Assembly (NCBI GenBank): GCA_028713935.1
Contig: JAQTNI010000007.1
Span: forward strand, 5,262 to 37,261
Direction of reading: 5' to 3'
From: Candidatus Iainarchaeum sp.
GTDB taxonomy: Archaea; Iainarchaeota; Iainarchaeia; Iainarchaeales; GCA-2688035
Length of the DNA stretch: 32,000 bases
Shown here piece after piece: positions 5,255 through 31,341 of the stretch (position 1 is its first letter; every line of letters starts with the position of its first letter). The position numbers and the translations under genes were made by a program. The notes beneath the pieces were generated by a model. The model was given only the letters and a program-made list of their open reading frames with translations. It made no database searches and had not been told where the DNA came from.

Positions 5255-6436
5255 TTGCGGGGGATTTTTTTGGAAGAAACTGAGGATTTGAAGTCTACTG
5301 GAAAATTTGCAGTTAAAGAAGAGGGAAAAAAGCCTGTTCTTGGCTTTATTGCAATTGCAGCTGTTTTTTTGGTTGTTGGAATTCTTGCGGGCGGATTTTT
5401 GGTTCCGCAGGCAGGCCTTGCAACTTTGCCAAGCACAAGCGGAAATGCCAATGCAGGAAATTCTTCCGCTGTTGCCGACAAGACAATAAAATATTTGAAT
5501 GACAATTTTTTTTCAGCACAGGGAGTGGAGGCAAAATTGTCTTCCGTGACTGAAGAATTTGGAATGTACAATGTTGCTTTTGATGTTTACAAGGGAACTG
5601 AAAAGCAGGGTTCAATGAGTGTTTATGCTTCAAAAGACGGAAAAGAAGCGCTTGTAGCATCACAGGTATTGGAATTGGACACACCTGTTACGCAGCCAGC
5701 CCAGACCGGCCAGCAGTTTTCTTATGAAGGTGTGGCTAAACCAGACACTCCTTTGCTTGAAGCATTTATTGTTTCAAACTGCCCTTTTGGCTTGCAAATG
5801 CAGCGCCTTTTAGCGCCAGTAGCAACTGGCCTTGCACAAAATATCAAAGTAAGGTATCTGGGTTCCATTGTAAATGGCAAAATAACCTCTATGCATGGCG
5901 ATGCCGAGGCACAAGAAAATTTGCGCCAAATTTGCATTCGTGAGGAACAGTCTGATAAATATTGGGCGTATGTCGCAGAGTACATAAAAGCCGGGAATGT
6001 GGATTCTGCTTTGTCTGTTGCAGGCATAGACAAGATAAGCTTGGATTCTTGCATGGCAGACCCGCAAAAAGGGTTAAAGTATGCCCAGGCAGATTTTGAC
6101 AGGGTAACTGAATTGACTGCAAAGTTTGCAAAGGACTATTCTGTTACGCAGGAAATTTCTTTTCCCTCGCCAGCAGTAGTGCTGAACAGTGAAACAACTC
6201 TGGAGTTCAGTTCACAAGGCAACTATTATTCGCCTTCAGAGGAATTTGCATATGCTGCTGCAAAAGGCGTGACTTATAATGCAAGGTCAGCTGAAAACGT
6301 GAAAAATCTTTTATGTGATGGCTTCAACACAATGCCAGCAGCCTGTTCCGCAAAGCTTTCTGAAGAACAAGCAGCAACATCTTTCTCTGAGCAATACTCT
6401 GGCGGAAGCTCCACTGGCGGAAGCTGCGGAAGCTGA
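5255..6436 (+). CDS. N-terminally membrane-anchored extracytoplasmic protein with DsbA/thioredoxin-like domain (CPFG in place of CPxC)
   Basis: TM helix VLGFIAIAAVFLVVGILAGGFLV. DsbA-like segment EAFIVSNCPFGLQMQRLLAPV...HGDAEAQENLRQICIRE..KYWAYV. No ATG precedes the TM helix, so the start (TTG) is uncertain. Confidence 0.5.
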   Translation: MRGIFLEETEDLKSTGKFAVKEEGKKPVLGFIAIAAVFLVVGILAGGFLVPQAGLATLPSTSGNANAGNSSAVADKTIKYLNDNFFSAQGVEAKLSSVTEEFGMYNVAFDVYKGTEKQGSMSVYASKDGKEALVASQVLELDTPVTQPAQTGQQFSYEGVAKPDTPLLEAFIVSNCPFGLQMQRLLAPVATGLAQNIKVRYLGSIVNGKITSMHGDAEAQENLRQICIREEQSDKYWAYVAEYIKAGNVDSALSVAGIDKISLDSCMADPQKGLKYAQADFDRVTELTAKFAKDYSVTQEISFPSPAVVLNSETTLEFSSQGNYYSPSEEFAYAAAKGVTYNARSAENVKNLLCDGFNTMPAACSAKLSEEQAATSFSEQYSGGSSTGGSCGS

Positions 6437-11063: not shown

Positions 11064-11127
11064 CTGAAAACAAGGCTTTTTTAAGGTTCTGGAACAATTT
11101 TTTATGTGGTTTTATGCCTTCTAAAAA

Positions 11128-11180
11128 GCCTTTTCTTAAAAAGAAAAGCCTTGGGAAAAGAAAAGCAAATGAAAAGCAGG
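11128..11180 (-). repeat. hairpin-repeat family 1, copy d (reverse orientation)
   Basis: Plus strand reads CTTTTCT-taaaa-AGAAAAG then CCTTGGGAAAAGAAAAG. This is the reverse complement of the core CTTTTC-CCAAGG-CTTTTC plus hairpin seen at 16526, 25587 and 28434. Confidence 0.7.
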
Positions 11181-11200
11181 CTGGGCTTGTTACTGGGGAA

Positions 11201-11398
11201 ATGACTTTTGCAGAGCTTACAAGCAGGCATCCTGCTGCTATTCCAATTCTTTTTGAATATGGCTTGCACTGCATTGGCTGCCATGTTTCTGCTTTGGAGA
11301 CAATTGAACAGGGCGCTCTGGCCCACGGCCTGTCAGAAGAGCAATTAAAAGAAATGCTTGGAAAAATCAATGGTGTTTCAAAAACTTCAAAAAATTAG
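11201..11398 (+). CDS. DUF1858-type redox-disulfide (CxxC) small protein
   Basis: MTFAELTSRHPAAIPILFEYGLHCIGCHVSALETIEQGALAHGL.. matches the hybrid-cluster-protein-associated redox disulfide domain pattern. The listed ORF start 11114 runs through repeat copy d and is probably not coding. Confidence 0.65.
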   Translation: MTFAELTSRHPAAIPILFEYGLHCIGCHVSALETIEQGALAHGLSEEQLKEMLGKINGVSKTSKN

Positions 11399-11642: not shown

Positions 11643-11697
11643 TTTCTTTCTTTTGGCAACTTACATTTTCTTTCTTTTTCAAAGAAAGAAAAGGCAG
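11643..11697 (-). repeat. composite repeat family 2, copy A (simple form)
   Basis: Reverse complement reads CTGCCTTTTCTTTCTT-tgaaa-AAGAAAGAAAATGTAAGTTGCCAAAAGAAAGAAA. This is near-identical to the two arms of the element at 30168-30274. Confidence 0.75.
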
Positions 11698-11711: not shown

Positions 11712-12986
11712 ATGCATGAAATTTTTTTTACTGCGCTTGGTGGAGCCAAAGAAGTTGGCAAAAGCTCTCTTTTAATTGATTATGGCGAAAAAATCCTTTT
11801 TGACAGGGGAGTAAAATTAAATGCAAGGAAAACAGAGTATCCCTTGCCTGTCACAACAAATCTTGATGCAGTTATAATTTCACATGCACATTTGGACCAT
11901 AGCGGAAGCCTGCCGCACCTGTTTTTGCAGTCCAATGTAATAAGCTTTTTGACTGTTTCAACTCTTGACCTTGCAAAATTGCTCTGGTTTGACTCTTTGA
12001 AAATCGCAGGCTTGGAGTCAATGGCTCCTGAATGGACAAAAGAAGAAATTCATAAGGCTGAAAAATTTTCTTTTCCGACCCATTACAAAAAAAATATTCA
12101 GATAACAAAAGAAGCGCATCTCGAGTTTTTTGATGCGGGGCATATTCTTGGAAGCGCTATTTCTGTGCTTTCGCTTAAGCGCCAGAAAATTGTTTATACT
12201 GGGGATTTCAAGTTTTTGGAAACAAGGCTTCATCATGGCGCAGACTTAAGCAGGATTAAAAACACTGATATCCTGATAACAGAGTCAACTTATGGAGACA
12301 GGGAACATCCTCCAAGAAAAGAAGTTGAAAAGCTTTTTGTTGAAAAAGTTGTGGACACTCTTGATAAAGGCGGGCATGTTCTTGTGCCTGCTTTTGCAAT
12401 TGGCAGGAGCCAGGAAATAATTGACATCTTGCATGAATACAAAATCGGCGCGCCTGTTTTTTTTGACGGAATGGGCCAAAAGGCAGCAAAAATAATGCTT
12501 GACCATCCAGACCTGCTTAAAGATGCGCGTTTTCTAAGGAAAGCGCTTTCAAATGCAATCTGGGTCAGGAATCCTTCTTTCAGGAAAAAAGCCTTGAAAG
12601 AGCCGAGCGTTATTGTTACAACTGCTGGCATGCTTTCCGGAGGCCCGGTTGGTTATTACCTGAAAGAAATTTACAAGAACAGTGACAGTGCTGTTCTTCT
12701 CACTGGCTATCAGGTTGAGGGAACTCCTGGCAGGCAGTTGCTTGAAACAGGCAAAATTGAGGTTGATGGTTCCCTTCTTGATGTTGCCGCCCATGTTGAA
12801 AAATTTGATTTTTCAGCGCATGCTGACCAGGCTGAAAGCATCCAGGCAATAAGAAAGCTTTCGCCAAAAAAAATTGTCCTTGTCCATGGTGATGCAGAAG
12901 TGATGCCTGTTTTTAAAAAGAAAATACTGGAAGAAACAGGCATTGAAACAGTTGTTCCAAGCATTGGCGAAAGAATAAAATTGTAG
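11712..12986 (+). CDS. beta-CASP metallo-beta-lactamase ribonuclease (aCPSF2-like, no KH domains)
   Basis: 424 aa. HAHLDHSG (HxHxDH), DAGHILGSA, TGDFK, ESTYG, GRSQE, ..FSAHADQ.. and VHGD motifs appear in beta-CASP order. Confidence 0.85.
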   Translation: MHEIFFTALGGAKEVGKSSLLIDYGEKILFDRGVKLNARKTEYPLPVTTNLDAVIISHAHLDHSGSLPHLFLQSNVISFLTVSTLDLAKLLWFDSLKIAGLESMAPEWTKEEIHKAEKFSFPTHYKKNIQITKEAHLEFFDAGHILGSAISVLSLKRQKIVYTGDFKFLETRLHHGADLSRIKNTDILITESTYGDREHPPRKEVEKLFVEKVVDTLDKGGHVLVPAFAIGRSQEIIDILHEYKIGAPVFFDGMGQKAAKIMLDHPDLLKDARFLRKALSNAIWVRNPSFRKKALKEPSVIVTTAGMLSGGPVGYYLKEIYKNSDSAVLLTGYQVEGTPGRQLLETGKIEVDGSLLDVAAHVEKFDFSAHADQAESIQAIRKLSPKKIVLVHGDAEVMPVFKKKILEETGIETVVPSIGERIKL

Positions 12987-16437: not shown

Positions 16438-16623
16438 CGGACCCGGTGGGATTTGAACCCACGACCCCCGCCTCGCTCCAGCTTTTTTTAATAAAAAACA
16501 ATCTGGGAATTTTTTTTAACAAAACCAGTTTTTCGAAGAAAAACTGCTCTTTTCCCAGGGCTTTTCTCTTCAGAGAAAAGGCCTTAGGAGTGCGGTGCCC
16601 TATCCAGGCTAGGCTACAGGTCC
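16438..16623 (-). tRNA. tRNA-Arg (anticodon CCU) with a 111-nt intron at the canonical 37/38 position
   Basis: Acceptor GGACCUG/CGGGUCC, D arm GCCU-AGCCUGGAUA-GGGC, anticodon loop CUCCUAA (CCU at 16588-16586), T arm GUGGG-UUCAAAU-CCCAC. Intron is 16474-16584. BHB: central helix CUCC (16590-16587)/GGAG (16479-16476), with 3-nt bulges cut after the second nucleotide. One A31-G39 mismatch. No encoded CCA. Confidence 0.8.
16526..16580 (+). repeat. hairpin-repeat family 1, copy a (inside the tRNA-Arg intron, antisense to the tRNA)
   Basis: CAGTTTTTC-gaa-GAAAAACTG hairpin, core CTCTTTTCCCAGGG, then hairpin CTTTTCTC-ttca-GAGAAAAG. Confidence 0.7.
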
Positions 16624-16861: not shown

Positions 16862-17560
16862 CTTCCGCGAGAACCCCTGATACGCTTTAGCGTATGGATG
16901 AATCGCGGTCTTTTTCTACAATTTAACTGTTGTTTTTATTGCAAGAAACGACAGTGGCGCGTCCGCCTTCGGCGGAAGCGCTTTACAATCTATTTTGTAT
17001 AGCGGAAGCTTTCAAAAAGGTTTCTGTTTCTTGCAGGAAGTGTTTTGTATGGCTAGTTTTACTTTGTTTGAATCTGCGCATTGTGTTGGAGAGTCAAATC
17101 TGCATTTGCAGTTCACTCCAAAATACAGGAAGCCTGTTTTTGAAGATGAAGTTGTGAGAAAAGCCTGTGAACTGGCCTTTCAAGGAGTAGCGGCACAACT
17201 CAAAGTTGTTTTGTCTGGAATCGGTTTTGGCCCAGACCATGCGCATCTGTTTGTTAAAAACTGGAAAAACTACAGCATAGTGGAGTTGGCGCGAAGATTC
17301 AAAGGCGCGGTTTCTCATGCACTCAGAAAAGCGTATCCTGAGCGACTGCAAAAATACTTGTGGGGCAATGCTTTTTGGACAGGTGGATATTTCTATCGCA
17401 CGGTAGGAGCAGTAACTGTGCAAGCAATGAGAAAATATGTAATAGAAAGCCAGCAAAAACACTGGAAAAAAACAAACACAGTATCAGAGCAAACAACACT
17501 AATGCACTTCAACTAGACTGCCGGACTCACGACTCGGCGGGCTTTAGCCCGCCGTAGTTC
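16862..17560 (+). mobile_element. IS200/IS605-family insertion sequence (tnpA only); boundaries approximate
   Basis: Y1 transposase ORF flanked by subterminal hairpins ATACGC-ttta-GCGTAT (16880-16895) and CGGCGGGC-ttta-GCCCGCCG (17535-17554), plus a GC hairpin at 16957-16981. About 0.7 kb. Interrupts the HIT gene. Confidence 0.75.
17049..17516 (+). CDS. tnpA: IS200/IS605-family Y1 (HUH) transposase TnpA
   Basis: HLQFTPKYRK.., HUH motif PDHAHLFV, and C-terminal ..WTGGYFYRTVG.. with the catalytic Tyr region. ATG at 17049 lies inside the listed ORF. Confidence 0.8.
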   Translation: MASFTLFESAHCVGESNLHLQFTPKYRKPVFEDEVVRKACELAFQGVAAQLKVVLSGIGFGPDHAHLFVKNWKNYSIVELARRFKGAVSHALRKAYPERLQKYLWGNAFWTGGYFYRTVGAVTVQAMRKYVIESQQKHWKKTNTVSEQTTLMHFN

Positions 17561-25515: not shown

Positions 25516-25586
25516 AAAAAGAACAGGGGTTTCTTTGTTTAAATATTTAACGCCACAAATTTTTTATGTTAGCGGAGCGAACTCCA

Positions 25587-25642
25587 AAATCGCGAAGCGA
25601 TTTTGTTTCTTTTCCCAGGTTTTCTTTGCTCTGCAAAGAAAA
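25587..25642 (+). repeat. hairpin-repeat family 1, copy b (directly upstream of tRNA-Thr)
   Basis: AAAATCGC-gaa-GCGATTTT hairpin, core GTTTCTTTTCCCAGG, then hairpin TTTTCTTTGC-tct-GCAAAGAAAA, ending 3 nt before the tRNA 5' end. Confidence 0.7.
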
Positions 25643-25645
25643 GCT

Positions 25646-28304: not shown

Positions 28305-28433
28305 CCTTTTGTCTTGAAAAACAATGGTTTTTATTGGTTATATGTATAATTAATTTAGTGTTTAATATTGTTTCGGTAGGGCACTGTGTGTTCTTTTCCC
28401 GAACAAGGCAGGAAGTGTGTTTGTAAAGCTTTC

Positions 28434-28501
28434 GCGTTTTTCGCAGAAAAACGCTTCTTTTCCCAAGGCTTTTCTTCCTTGCAAAGCATTGCTTTGCGAG
28501 G
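28434..28501 (+). repeat. hairpin-repeat family 1, copy c
   Basis: GCGTTTTT-cgcag-AAAAACGC hairpin, core TTCTTTTCCCAAGG-CTTTTCTT, then hairpin CCTTGCAAAGC-att-GCTTTGCGAGG. That last hairpin is the reverse complement of the inner hairpin at 30209-30235. A partial core TTCTTTTCCCgaacAAGGC sits at 28391-28409. Confidence 0.7.
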
Positions 28502-28568
28502 CATCGTAAAAACCTTTTGGTTTTTACAATGTTCAAGAAAAGGCTTATATTGTTTCGGTGCAGGCATT

Positions 28569-28973
28569 ATGAAGGTTTCCCTTATTTCTGATTCAAAAAC
28601 AAGGATAAATTTTTTTCCAGAGCTTTCCGAATTGCTTGCGGAAAAAATTGCAGACATTGAAACGGAAATTTTTTTTGTTCCTTTTCCCGAGGATATTCCC
28701 GCAAAGGCAAAGGAAGCGATTGAATCAGAGGAATCAGAGCTTGTTTTTGTTTTTTCCGCCTGCAAAAAACTTGATTTCAGGGCGGAATTGCTCTTGTCAA
28801 AGCTTGTTGATGTTGAGCTTCAGACTGGAAAAAAAATAATAAAAATAATAAAGAAAAAAAGCCTTGACCTGTTCCAGGGCAGCGAAAAAAACGAAAAAGA
28901 AGAGCTTGCAAAAAAATGGTGCGAATTCATAATTGACTATTTGTACAAGCCGGAATTGTTTGAGCCGAAATGA
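28569..28973 (+). CDS. hypothetical 134-aa protein (flavodoxin/lumazine-synthase-like alternating pattern, weak)
   Basis: ATG 28569 lies about 20 nt downstream of a TTATAT TATA-like box. The longer listed ORF start runs through repeat copy c. No family recognised with confidence. Confidence 0.4.
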   Translation: MKVSLISDSKTRINFFPELSELLAEKIADIETEIFFVPFPEDIPAKAKEAIESEESELVFVFSACKKLDFRAELLLSKLVDVELQTGKKIIKIIKKKSLDLFQGSEKNEKEELAKKWCEFIIDYLYKPELFEPK

Positions 28974-30354: not shown

Positions 30355-31341
30355 ATGAATTTTTCTTTTGAGAACGGCCTTGTTTTTGAAAAAAATTTTG
30401 CAATTGACCCAGGCAGGGCAAACGGATTTGAAAATGTCATTATTACCCATGCCCATGCTGACCATGTCTGCCTGAATTCAAAATCAAATTTCTTTTTTTC
30501 AAGGCAGACCCATTCCCTTATAGAATCGCGCTATGAAAAAGTTGCCAATGCAAAGGCAAAAGAATTCAAGCAAAAATTTTCAATGCCATTTGGAGAAATT
30601 TCCCTGCACAATTCAGGGCATATTCTGGGAAGCAGCCAGGTTTTGGTTGAAGGAAAGGAAAAAACAGTTGCAATCACTTCCGACTTCAAATTGCAGGACT
30701 CGCTTGTGCAAAAAAAAGCTGAAATTCTTCCCTGTGATTCGCTTGTGATTGAAAGCACTTTTGGCCTGCCCTGCTATAAATTCCCGGAAAGAAAAGCCGT
30801 TTATGAGGAAATTGCAAAATGGATTCTTGACAAAACAAAAAAATCTTTTGTGGTTTTAGCAGGTTATTCCCTTGGAAAGGCACAGGAGCTAACTGCTGTA
30901 TGCACACAGCTTGCAGGAATAAGCCCTGTTGTGCACGAAAGCATTTTCAAAAACAACAAGGTTTACGAAAGCTTCGGGGTAAAGCTTGGGGATTATCTGA
31001 AGCTTGACCATAACCTGAAAGATTCCAATGTCCTGATAATGCCGCCTTCTCTTGCAAAGCCTGAACTTTTGAATATCCTTGAAGAAACACTGCACAAAAA
31101 AATCTTTTCGGCTTTTGCAACTGGCTGGCAGAACCGCGGAAATTACAGCAAAATTTTTCCATTGTCAGACCATGCTGACTTTGAGCAATTATTGGTGTAT
31201 GTTAAAGAGGCAAAGCCAAAACAGGTTTTCACAATGCATGGCCATTCAAGGGAATTTGCAGGATACGTGCAGAGGCGCCTTGGCATTCCCGCAAGGCCTC
31301 TCGAAGAAAGCCCGCAAAAAAGCCTGCAGGAATTCTTTTAA
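30355..31341 (+). CDS. short beta-CASP/MBL-fold nuclease (about 330 aa, ligase-associated-exonuclease-like architecture)
   Basis: ITHAHADH, NSGHILGSS, TSDFK, ESTFG, LGKAQE, ATGW, PLSDHADFEQL and MHGH motifs appear in beta-CASP order. Confidence 0.75.
   Translation: MNFSFENGLVFEKNFAIDPGRANGFENVIITHAHADHVCLNSKSNFFFSRQTHSLIESRYEKVANAKAKEFKQKFSMPFGEISLHNSGHILGSSQVLVEGKEKTVAITSDFKLQDSLVQKKAEILPCDSLVIESTFGLPCYKFPERKAVYEEIAKWILDKTKKSFVVLAGYSLGKAQELTAVCTQLAGISPVVHESIFKNNKVYESFGVKLGDYLKLDHNLKDSNVLIMPPSLAKPELLNILEETLHKKIFSAFATGWQNRGNYSKIFPLSDHADFEQLLVYVKEAKPKQVFTMHGHSREFAGYVQRRLGIPARPLEESPQKSLQEFF

Follow-up and report, generated by a model that had tools for sequence, protein, structure and literature searches.

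The 32,000-nt stretch of Candidatus Iainarchaeum sp. DNA analysed here (contig JAQTNI010000007.1, positions 5,262 to 37,261 of the forward strand; hereafter 'the window') harbors several copies of a short, strongly structured repeat. On balance, we consider it probable that these copies belong to a new and large family of small (~40–170 nt), non-autonomous repeats that are inserted in the genomes of DPANN archaea, resemble miniature inverted-repeat transposable elements (MITEs) and possess a core of intrastrand-triplex design. A first-pass annotation of the window had described four copies with a common plan, comprising a variable hairpin A, a core with two CTTTTC blocks and a hairpin B that reuses the second block, and had proposed selection to act on the single-stranded fold.

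In the following, Y orientation denotes the strand used in that annotation, on which the pyrimidine third strand comes first, and R orientation its complement; loci in other genomes carry L numbers. The core, consisting of TCTTTTCCC, 1–3 nt (A, AA or AG), GG, 0–2 nt (C) and TTTTCT, matched the window four times (Table 1), as compared to 0.00 matches expected from 100 dinucleotide-preserving shuffles, which ruled out chance or low complexity as its source. A covariance model (R1), built solely from copies in other genomes, recovered precisely these four copies at 63, 57, 38.9 and 24.9 bits, the next match scoring 15.8 bits. The four copies first described thus exceed chance expectation, with a fifth, divergent copy having been overlooked. 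As proposed, fold predictions revealed the second CTTTTC to be reused by hairpin B, and both the partial core and the 9-bp hairpin core (28506–28527) reported near 28.4 kb are present. Hairpin A, which had been ascribed to every copy, was found in three of the four, but not in the 11.1-kb copy. Rfam 15, run over the copies at gathering thresholds and at E-values up to 1, returned tRNA models only.

We scanned one genome per species with the 20-mer TCTTTTCCCWRGGCTTTTCT. This search returned at least 109 loci, ~90 of them archaeal, and all later counts rest on the matches listed. The archaeal matches (at least 90 loci) derive from ~30 DPANN species, mainly Iainarchaeum and Micrarchaeota; hosts among the matches listed include many metagenome-assembled genomes (MAGs) and the complete genome GW2011_AR10 of Iainarchaeum, Micrarchaeota/Micrarchaeia, ‘Aenigmatarchaeota’, a Woesearchaeota MAG and Burarchaeum. 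R1 identified at least 142 copies in 93 archaeal loci. Bacterial 20-mer matches were attributed to chance because they lack hairpin B, and a single match in a viral contig was not confirmed by R1. By extrapolation, 4–5 copies in the 32-kb window would correspond to roughly 150–200 copies per ~1.2-Mb genome. A full-text literature search found no description of this element.

Insertion is documented at 28.4 kb, where a composite copy precedes a gene whose ATG lies at 28569. The orthologous divergent gene pair was retrieved from four relatives (L112, L113, L115 and L116; encoded protein 68–82% identical), all of which present empty sites: a single TTTAATA..GTTTCGGT stands directly before the ATG, with no element and with spacers of 64–109 nt. 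Correspondingly, TTTAATATTGTTTCGGT occurs twice, around the element, in the window and in L063, and once in each of the four relatives. The 12-mer of the flanking duplication was found elsewhere only at the same locus of L063, there as part of a 25–26-nt repeat. ACCGAAACAATATTAA, considered as a candidate minus-strand promoter motif, turned out to be this locus-specific target duplication. The 28.4-kb locus is a filled/empty comparison with a target-site duplication of 15–26 nt, and the comparison of orthologous loci, put forward with the first-pass annotation as a mobility test, revealed presence/absence variation. The left duplication copy contains the probable TATA box of the plus-strand gene, while the last two bases of the element overlap the right copy.

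Hairpin B had been described as swapped for another structure in this composite copy. It is not, because the additional hairpins are nested in its loop: the 3′ arm AAGAAAAGGCTT pairs across them with 28465–28476. The fold of helix B with its two nested hairpins is a three-way junction, whether predicted as RNA or as DNA (z = −7 to −8). The nested two-hairpin module is kept in L007, L015, L039, L081 and L098, with a conserved T.G pair, and the long form with hairpins nested in the helix B loop recurs in L007, L015, L024, L039 and L096.

Target duplications were also seen in other genomes. Direct repeats of at least 12 nt flanked 16 of 104 copies, as compared to 2.2% in flank-swapped controls. 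Overall, the duplications span 10–36 nt and enclose 44–169 nt, the distal end of the element being variable; in each clear case, the base of the helix marks the end of the first repeat copy. Most duplicated targets fall within ~30 nt of a start site (examples in Table 1). Tandem arrays of the element occur in L034, L015 and L025. The duplication-bounded copies showed no terminal inverted repeats at their ends. With one filled as opposed to four empty sites, target duplications and nested insertions, the MITE-like character suggested in the first-pass annotation is supported.

In three of these loci (L023, ~5476–5560; L090, ~1369–1450; L106, ~2884–2960; all on the minus strand), an R-sense element stands between tRNA-Ser and its duplicated start, and the segment following the purine strand, CCGCCATC, has its complement in the duplicated tRNA fragment, GATGGCGG. 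This arrangement could stem from a D-loop insertion that was rescued by the duplication, or could represent an unrecognised non-canonical intron.

Inspection of helix B (that is, hairpin B with its extension) revealed it to be longer than first described. W and R, the variable bases of the core, have as pairing partners the two bases after AAAAGGC; they are paired in 89 (W) and 91 (R) of 91 copies among the matches listed, using six dinucleotide combinations (AA/TT in 50 copies, AG/CT in 26, as well as GA/TC, TG/CA, TA/TA and CA/TG). Between these pairs and the CTTTTC stem lies a conserved G.G mismatch (C.C on the R strand), such that helix B is extended by the mismatch and three further pairs, two of which covary. 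In an alignment of 71 sequences, helix B was 99% paired, both sides had changed in 8 of 13 pairs, none of 500 shuffles equalled the observed score and slid registers all collapsed. Together with hairpin A stems that diverge in sequence yet are perfectly paired, these data strongly support the proposed selection on a single-stranded fold.

The third strand obeys a rule of its own. Rather than being a direct repeat of the pyrimidine arm of helix B (Y2), the ‘first CTTTTC’ (Y1), a homopyrimidine segment of 9 nt, is its mirror image and covaries with it. Stem variants such as CTTTC, T5–6 and CTCT are matched by the third segment in mirror order, and long non-symmetric arms keep to the same rule (for instance, GAAGAGAAAGAAAA with GAAAAGAAAGAGA). 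The mean mirror-match length was 7.24, as compared to 5.60 ± 0.10 when third segments were permuted among copies. Parallel alignment columns covary (12–47, UA 63/CG 8; 13–48, CG 58/UA 13; 15–50, UA 41/CG 6) to an extent reached in 0 of 500 shuffles, and the base just outside the constant core reads T/T/A in 76 copies and C/C/G in eight, with one exception. Between the window and L050, a three-way change distinguishes the orthologous tRNA-Arg introns. As an alternative, we considered Watson–Crick pairing of the third strand; this covers only the symmetric 6–7-nt sub-core and not the 12–13-nt non-symmetric mirror matches, and all secondary-structure predictions left Y1 unpaired.

A hairpin of one homopurine and one homopyrimidine arm, joined by a third block that repeats an arm in mirror order, is the textbook blueprint for an intramolecular triple helix (PMC7583470; PMC4666352), and we know of no replication error that makes mirror repeats. 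Mirror repetition of Y1 in covariation with Y2 follows the intramolecular triple-helix rule. We infer from the sequences that the core, which has this blueprint on either DNA strand and in RNA of either sense, would form such a helix, with T/U.A-T/U and C+.G-C triples on the Y strand and A.A-T and G.G-C triples on the R strand. Extra hairpins sit exactly at two connector positions, namely between Y1 and the linker (L063, 55 nt) and in the loop between Y2 and the purine strand R (the 28.4-kb copy of the window); these are the two positions at which a triplex tolerates them.

Hairpin A is A/T-rich, and the stems of 50 copies contain no G.T pair and one A.C pair. In 27 of 43 copies, the hairpin is topped on the Y strand by C-GAA-G, C-GCA-G or C-GGA-G, and d(GCGNAGC) mini-hairpins are exceptionally stable in DNA. 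An optional distal module of 15 nt, GTGAGCGAAGCGAAC, found at 25568–25582 of the window and at 13 further loci, contains the GCGAAGC heptamer exactly. We considered this module as a transcription-start mark; with a TATA-like box at about −25 in just 5–6 of the 14 copies, such a role is not general. Given perfect stems devoid of G.T pairs and loops that conform to d(GCGNAGC), the active folded single strand would most likely be DNA rather than RNA.

With respect to genomic placement, at least 32 of 123 core matches fall inside tRNA introns, as determined by ARAGORN and intron search, and affect at least ten isoacceptor types. All 32 have the R strand in tRNA sense and start at intron nucleotide 1 or 2, directly after position 37. 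A looser census of 69 tRNAs counted 34 R and 0 Y copies inside, 10 R and 0 Y copies up to 120 nt downstream, and 5 R and 2 Y copies upstream of the tRNA. Downstream copies start 1–3 nt after the discriminator. Both upstream Y copies form tRNA leaders (of tRNA-Thr in the window and of tRNA-Cys in L047), and in each the purine arm ends 2 nt before the +1 position. In L106, a Y-sense variant closes the 3′ end of a tRNA-Ser intron. For several introns, the purine strand and linker are predicted to pair with a downstream UUCCCWRG segment, compacting the intron.

In at least eight cases (L044, L048, L051, L068, L074, L086, L102 and others), the element-bearing intron tRNA was not called by ARAGORN with intron search. 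Because such tRNAs are missed, the tRNA sets of these lineages are probably under-annotated.

Outside tRNA genes, at least 19 of 113 copies start within a few nucleotides of a stop codon (ORFs, or open reading frames, of at least 70 codons), as compared to 3.6 expected, and in 11 of the 19 the last two bases of the stop codon (TAA or TAG) serve as W and R of the helix. The hairpin side usually points toward the neighbouring functional segment, with the third strand and hairpin A pointing away; this holds for all five copies in the window, while exceptions include R-sense copies upstream of tRNA-Ser genes. A link of orientation to replication was not supported: cumulative GC skew rises across the whole window, yet copies lie on both strands.

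Table 1 Positions of the element copies in the window, their parts, and target duplications in other genomes.
Feature	Position	Strand	Details
Core match	11142–11161	−	Pattern search
Core match	16548–16567	+	Pattern search
Core match	25608–25625	+	Pattern search
Core match	28456–28475	+	Pattern search
Composite inserted element, 28.4 kb	28378–28546	+	Y orientation; alignment with L063 (filled) and L112, L113, L115, L116 (empty); fold
Target-site duplication, left copy TAATATTGTTTCGGT	28363–28377		Extends to ~28354 when set against the 25–26-nt repeat of L063
Target-site duplication, right copy TTATATTGTTTCGGT	28545–28559		9 nt upstream of ATG at 28569
Partial core GTTCTTTTCCCGAACAAGG	28391–28409	+	Remnant third strand and linker; weak R1 match 28387–28436
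Hairpin A, 28.4 kb	28434–28454	+	9 bp, loop GCA, top C-GCA-G
Y1 third-strand segment TCTTTTCCC	28456–28464	+	Mirror repeat of Y2 arm; unpaired in all secondary-structure predictions
Helix B 5′ arm AA-G-G-CTTTTCTT	28465–28476	+	Carries covarying W and R positions; G of the G.G mismatch at 28468
Two hairpins nested in helix B loop	28477–28531	+	28477–28501 and 28502–28531; fold
Helix B 3′ arm AAGAAAAGGCTT	28535–28546	+	Purine strand R
Full-length Y copy, 5′ leader of tRNA-Thr	25568–25645	+	Fold, R1
tRNA-Thr leader, module GTTAGCGGAGCGAAC	25568–25582	+	
tRNA-Thr leader, hairpin A	25585–25605	+	
tRNA-Thr leader, Y1	25606–25616	+	
tRNA-Thr leader, helix B	25617–25629	+	Paired with 25633–25645
R copy in tRNA-Arg(CCU) intron	16526–16584	−	Begins at first nucleotide of 111-nt intron; gene 16438–16623 (−)
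tRNA-Arg copy, helix B	16584–16557	−	
tRNA-Arg copy, purine third strand R2	16556–16548	−	
tRNA-Arg copy, hairpin A′	16546–16526	−	
R copy without hairpin A, 11.1 kb	11126–11161	+	36 nt in frame; 12 codons KPFLKKKSLGKR of a lysine-rich N-terminal tail
Fifth, divergent triplex-type Y copy	11643–11694	+	~17 nt upstream of ATG at 11712; Y1 TTTCTTTCTTTT, then GG and linker CAACTTACA; Y2 TTTTCTTTCTTT; loop TTC; R AAAGAAAGAAAA, then GG
Duplication, L108			16 nt; 4 nt before ATG
Duplication, L053			At least 12 nt; promoter region
Duplication, L042			10 nt; 3′ end of tRNA-Ala
Duplication, L026			13 nt, or 25 nt with two mismatches; spans Shine-Dalgarno sequence, ATG and four codons
Duplication, L023			16 nt; first 15 nt of tRNA-Ser gene
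Duplication, L090			18 nt; first 15 nt of tRNA-Ser gene
Duplication, L106			36 nt; first 15 nt of tRNA-Ser gene, also promoter

The remaining copies in the window illustrate these settings. The tRNA-Thr leader copy ends 0 nt before the +1 position of the tRNA (25646), and a TATA-like sequence, TTTAAATATTTAA, lies ~24 nt upstream of its first nucleotide. Leader and promoter are invariant between the window and L063. In L063 (~5600–5655, minus strand), a 55-nt hairpin is present between Y1 and the linker of this copy, without a counterpart at 25615/25616 of the window.

The tRNA-Arg(CCU) intron forms a canonical bulge-helix-bulge, in which C32–C35 pairs with GGAG (16479–16476) and the bulges are UA|A and CG|A, with the 5′ splice site between 16585 and 16584. 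The element is cargo from the third nucleotide of the 5′ bulge onward and not the bulge-helix-bulge motif itself. This tRNA gene was overlooked by default ARAGORN, and its predicted anticodon stem carries an A31.G39 mismatch.

Contrary to the description of all copies as non-coding, the 11.1-kb copy contributes its 12 codons to the ORF 11114–11398. The encoded protein is identical to an NCBI-annotated DUF1858 protein whose homologues share the MPSKK start and a lysine-rich tail. A homologue at 85% identity carries the same KKPFLKKKSLGKRK, and the 36-nt element is 100% conserved in the close relative L111. Among relatives, the N-terminal lysine-rich tail is very variable in length (proteins of 73–139 aa), and L111 has an extra 30-nt insertion there.

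In the fifth copy, mirror and complement matches are both 12 of 12 despite a different linker. It is missing in L111, which is otherwise >90% identical to the window around 11 kb, and is 92% identical to the 3′ end of the tRNA-Ser intron in L106. Two ORFs of the window (11712–12986 and 30355–31341, both plus strand) encode RNA-metabolising metallo-beta-lactamases of the beta-CASP/RMMBL type (aCPSF/RNase J-like), the first of which starts ~17 nt after the fifth element.

How might such an element spread? Under the reading that we favour, that of an inserted MITE-like repeat, the folded single strand, most likely DNA, would be the form that is recognised or active during copying. As the element presumably encodes no enzyme, copying would proceed via a trans-acting factor or via replication template switching at the stalled structure. 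Duplications of this length and variability could arise through the action of an unusual DDE-type enzyme, through target-primed reverse transcription or when replication switches templates at a stalled hairpin-triplex; no related parent insertion sequence (IS) was found among the window ORFs and the loci listed. Copies would survive only where the cell removes or tolerates them, that is, in tRNA introns, which the splicing endonuclease excises (helix B there directly adjoining the bulge at the 5′ splice site), in tRNA leaders and trailers that are removed by RNase P and RNase Z, respectively, right after stop codons, in promoter-proximal spacers and in a lysine-rich protein tail. The one-sided orientation in tRNAs might mean that copies of the U-rich, triplex-competent sense are selected against, or else that insertion includes a strand-specific step.

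Several observations speak against this reading. Structurally, the turn is geometrically tight, because three extra base pairs separate the third strand from the hairpin, and a purine-motif RNA triplex is without natural precedent (PMC7583470). Among the 20 window ORFs scanned, no reverse transcriptase or integrase was found, and no transposase could be tied to the element. Insertion alone leaves the strict orientation in tRNA transcripts unexplained. At orthologous sites (window versus L050), old copies have retained their fold in introns whose remaining sequence has diverged; this is suggestive of constraint, but gene conversion between copies could give the same picture. Finally, a 20-nt core that is identical across hosts labelled by NCBI as different phyla is unusual for selfish DNA, and could point to a conserved host factor.

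Some of these features would sit well with a structured RNA element of the host that is placed around functional RNAs (exons, tRNAs and ORFs) and guides or protects their ends, an explanation we regard as rather unlikely but the foremost of the rivals. Helix B would then act as an intron-side splicing helix, as a barrier to 3′-exonucleases or as a mark for nuclease cutting at its base. In line with this, the hairpin side adjoins intron nucleotide 1, tRNA 3′ ends (at 1–3 nt), stop codons and the +1 of tRNA-Thr and tRNA-Cys (at 2 nt); the fold is kept at orthologous sites where the neighbouring intron diverges; the same core recurs in distant lineages; and in several introns the purine strand and linker are predicted to pair with the downstream UUCCCWRG. 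However, the gene at 28569 has the element in the window and L063 only, four relatives doing without it, and L111 lacks the fifth copy. Target duplications and nested insertions mark insertion rather than a built-in signal, both orientations occur in sense transcripts, one copy is translated, and the stems are devoid of the G.U pairs usual in conserved RNA helices. The processing recognition site entertained in the first-pass annotation was suggested by position alone and sits poorly with a gene, beside the 28.4-kb copy, that occurs element-free in four relatives. Nor did its suggestion of L7Ae binding gain support: no tandem G.A motif indicative of a kink-turn was evident in the core, and there was no C/D, H/ACA or other Rfam match. 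A transcription terminator or pause site, consisting of hairpins and T-tracts or of a non-template purine mirror repeat, could account for the 19 copies starting at stop codons and the 10 downstream of tRNA genes, as well as for the T-rich sequence and the hairpins on both strands. We find it very hard to credit, since at least 32 copies reside in tRNA introns and termination at such a site would prevent a complete tRNA from being made; further copies occupy a coding region and 5′ leaders, and the T runs are just 4–5 nt long.

Two further explanations would make the element mobile by another route. It might be borne by RNA, in the manner of the element for nuclear expression (ENE) and MALAT1, a type of which we know no archaeal example: a Y-sense U.A-U/C+.G-C triple helix would cap an A-rich 3′ end, and the element would spread via an RNA intermediate. 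We think this improbable, and equally so the specific course in which RNase P releases the tRNA leader 2 nt after the purine arm, as an archaeal counterpart of MALAT1-mascRNA, and thereby seeds insertions with variable duplications; the many copies of opposite sense in introns and trailers would, on this view, represent the tolerated orientation. Consistent with it, the tRNA-Thr leader (25568–25645) and the tRNA-Cys leader of L047 are full Y units with nine consecutive triple-compatible layers each, promoter and leader are unchanged between the window and L063, and the precise helix-side end, the distal ends at 44–169 nt and the duplications of 10–36 nt recall the pattern of short interspersed elements. 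Triple helices that stabilise 3′ ends are known from transposable-element RNAs and from MALAT1, whose end is made by RNase P (PMC7583470). Yet the window ORFs include no reverse transcriptase, the distal ends are heterogeneous in sequence and do not form a nested series truncated from a single master copy, most copies have the opposite sense within known transcripts and nonetheless keep the fold, and perfect stems with GNA loops are more DNA-like.

The other route is that of a repetitive extragenic palindrome or bacterial interspersed mosaic element (REP/BIME), mobilised by a Y1 transposase (of the REP-associated tyrosine transposase, RAYT, or IS200-like type) that acts on single-stranded DNA hairpins. 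Such a gene does exist ~370 nt from the tRNA-Arg copy: the ORF 16995–17516(+) encodes an IS200-like Y1 transposase (PF01797, E-value 1.5e-26), and an identical protein is annotated by NCBI as IS200/IS605 transposase of Candidatus ainarchaeum sp. DNA-type GNA loops, perfect stems and intergenic, stop-proximal sites also fit REPs. However, the flanks of this gene (16950–16990 and 17520–17560) form GC-rich hairpins that are unrelated to the element, its family is found on many ~1-kb contigs like an ordinary multi-copy IS, and none of the 109 loci listed contains a homologue. It lies inside a 1.5-kb variable region beside tRNA-Arg that is without counterpart at the orthologous place in L050, and the comparison of this neighbourhood with L050 yielded no usable insertion borders. 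IS200/IS605 and RAYT reactions leave no target duplications, whereas duplications of 10–36 nt are seen here. With unrelated end hairpins and no shared features, we rejected the RAYT/IS200 link and consider this route highly implausible; the REP/BIME resemblance noted in the first-pass annotation does not extend to membership, there being no REP 5′ tetranucleotide and no RAYT association.

Comparison with known systems places the element near, but not within, several of them. Like MITEs, it is short, structured, non-coding as a unit and multi-copy, with target duplications, filled/empty sites and nesting; unlike MITEs, it has no spanning terminal inverted repeats, its duplications are long and variable (10–36 nt), a parent IS is not evident and its core is conserved across very distant hosts. 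It shares with REP/BIME sequences the short palindromic units in transcribed intergenic DNA, often after stop codons and as singles or clusters, with hairpins suited to single-stranded DNA. REPs, in contrast, come with a 5′ tetranucleotide and a co-occurring RAYT gene, and with neither duplications nor a triplex-type mirror strand. Rickettsia palindromic elements (RPEs) are selfish palindromic repeats that can sit in frame inside protein genes. The entry of our element into a protein, as 12 codons of the DUF1858 protein, is similar; RPEs, however, are longer, bacterial and without a triplex design or a tRNA-intron habit.

The nearest structural relatives are the bacterial intrastrand triplex motifs PIT/TMECO, interspersed and conserved intergenic repeats of three blocks with intramolecular-triplex design that are tied to local rearrangement (Holder et al. 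2015, PMC4666352). Their stable triplex was not seen in vivo, and they differ from our element in being G/C-rich and in having no reported target duplications, tRNA-intron association or third-strand covariation (PMC4666352). As in ENE and MALAT1 (PMC7583470), two U-rich strands would clamp an A-rich strand with an occasional C+.G-C layer, and two leader copies would share the RNase P-made 3′ end. In an ENE, though, an internal loop supplies a U-rich strand from each of its sides and the A tract is contributed from far downstream, whereas our element arranges third strand, linker, pyrimidine arm, loop and purine arm in one local unit, mostly in the opposite sense; the triple-helix review does not mention archaea (PMC7583470). 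Gain of tRNA introns by ‘transposition’ in Thermoproteales likewise placed near-identical sequence in the introns of many different tRNA genes of one lineage (PMC4090602). What sets our element apart is that it has a defined structure and is found beyond tRNA genes too, accompanied by target duplications and empty sites.

If the reading as an inserted triplex-type repeat is right, an undescribed interspersed element of DPANN archaea would account for much of the length of their tRNA introns (45–200 nt, as compared to the usual 15–25 nt) and would illustrate a route by which very small genomes acquire new sequence in tRNA genes, at gene ends and even within proteins. To our knowledge, base-triple covariation across many natural copies would here be visible in a repeat family for the first time, offering a direct, testable case for triplex formation by cellular nucleic acids in prokaryotes. 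Long, variable duplications near start sites, with no recognisable enzyme, would imply an insertion route that has not yet been described. The covariance model also provides a practical marker for those disrupted tRNA genes of these lineages that standard tools miss.

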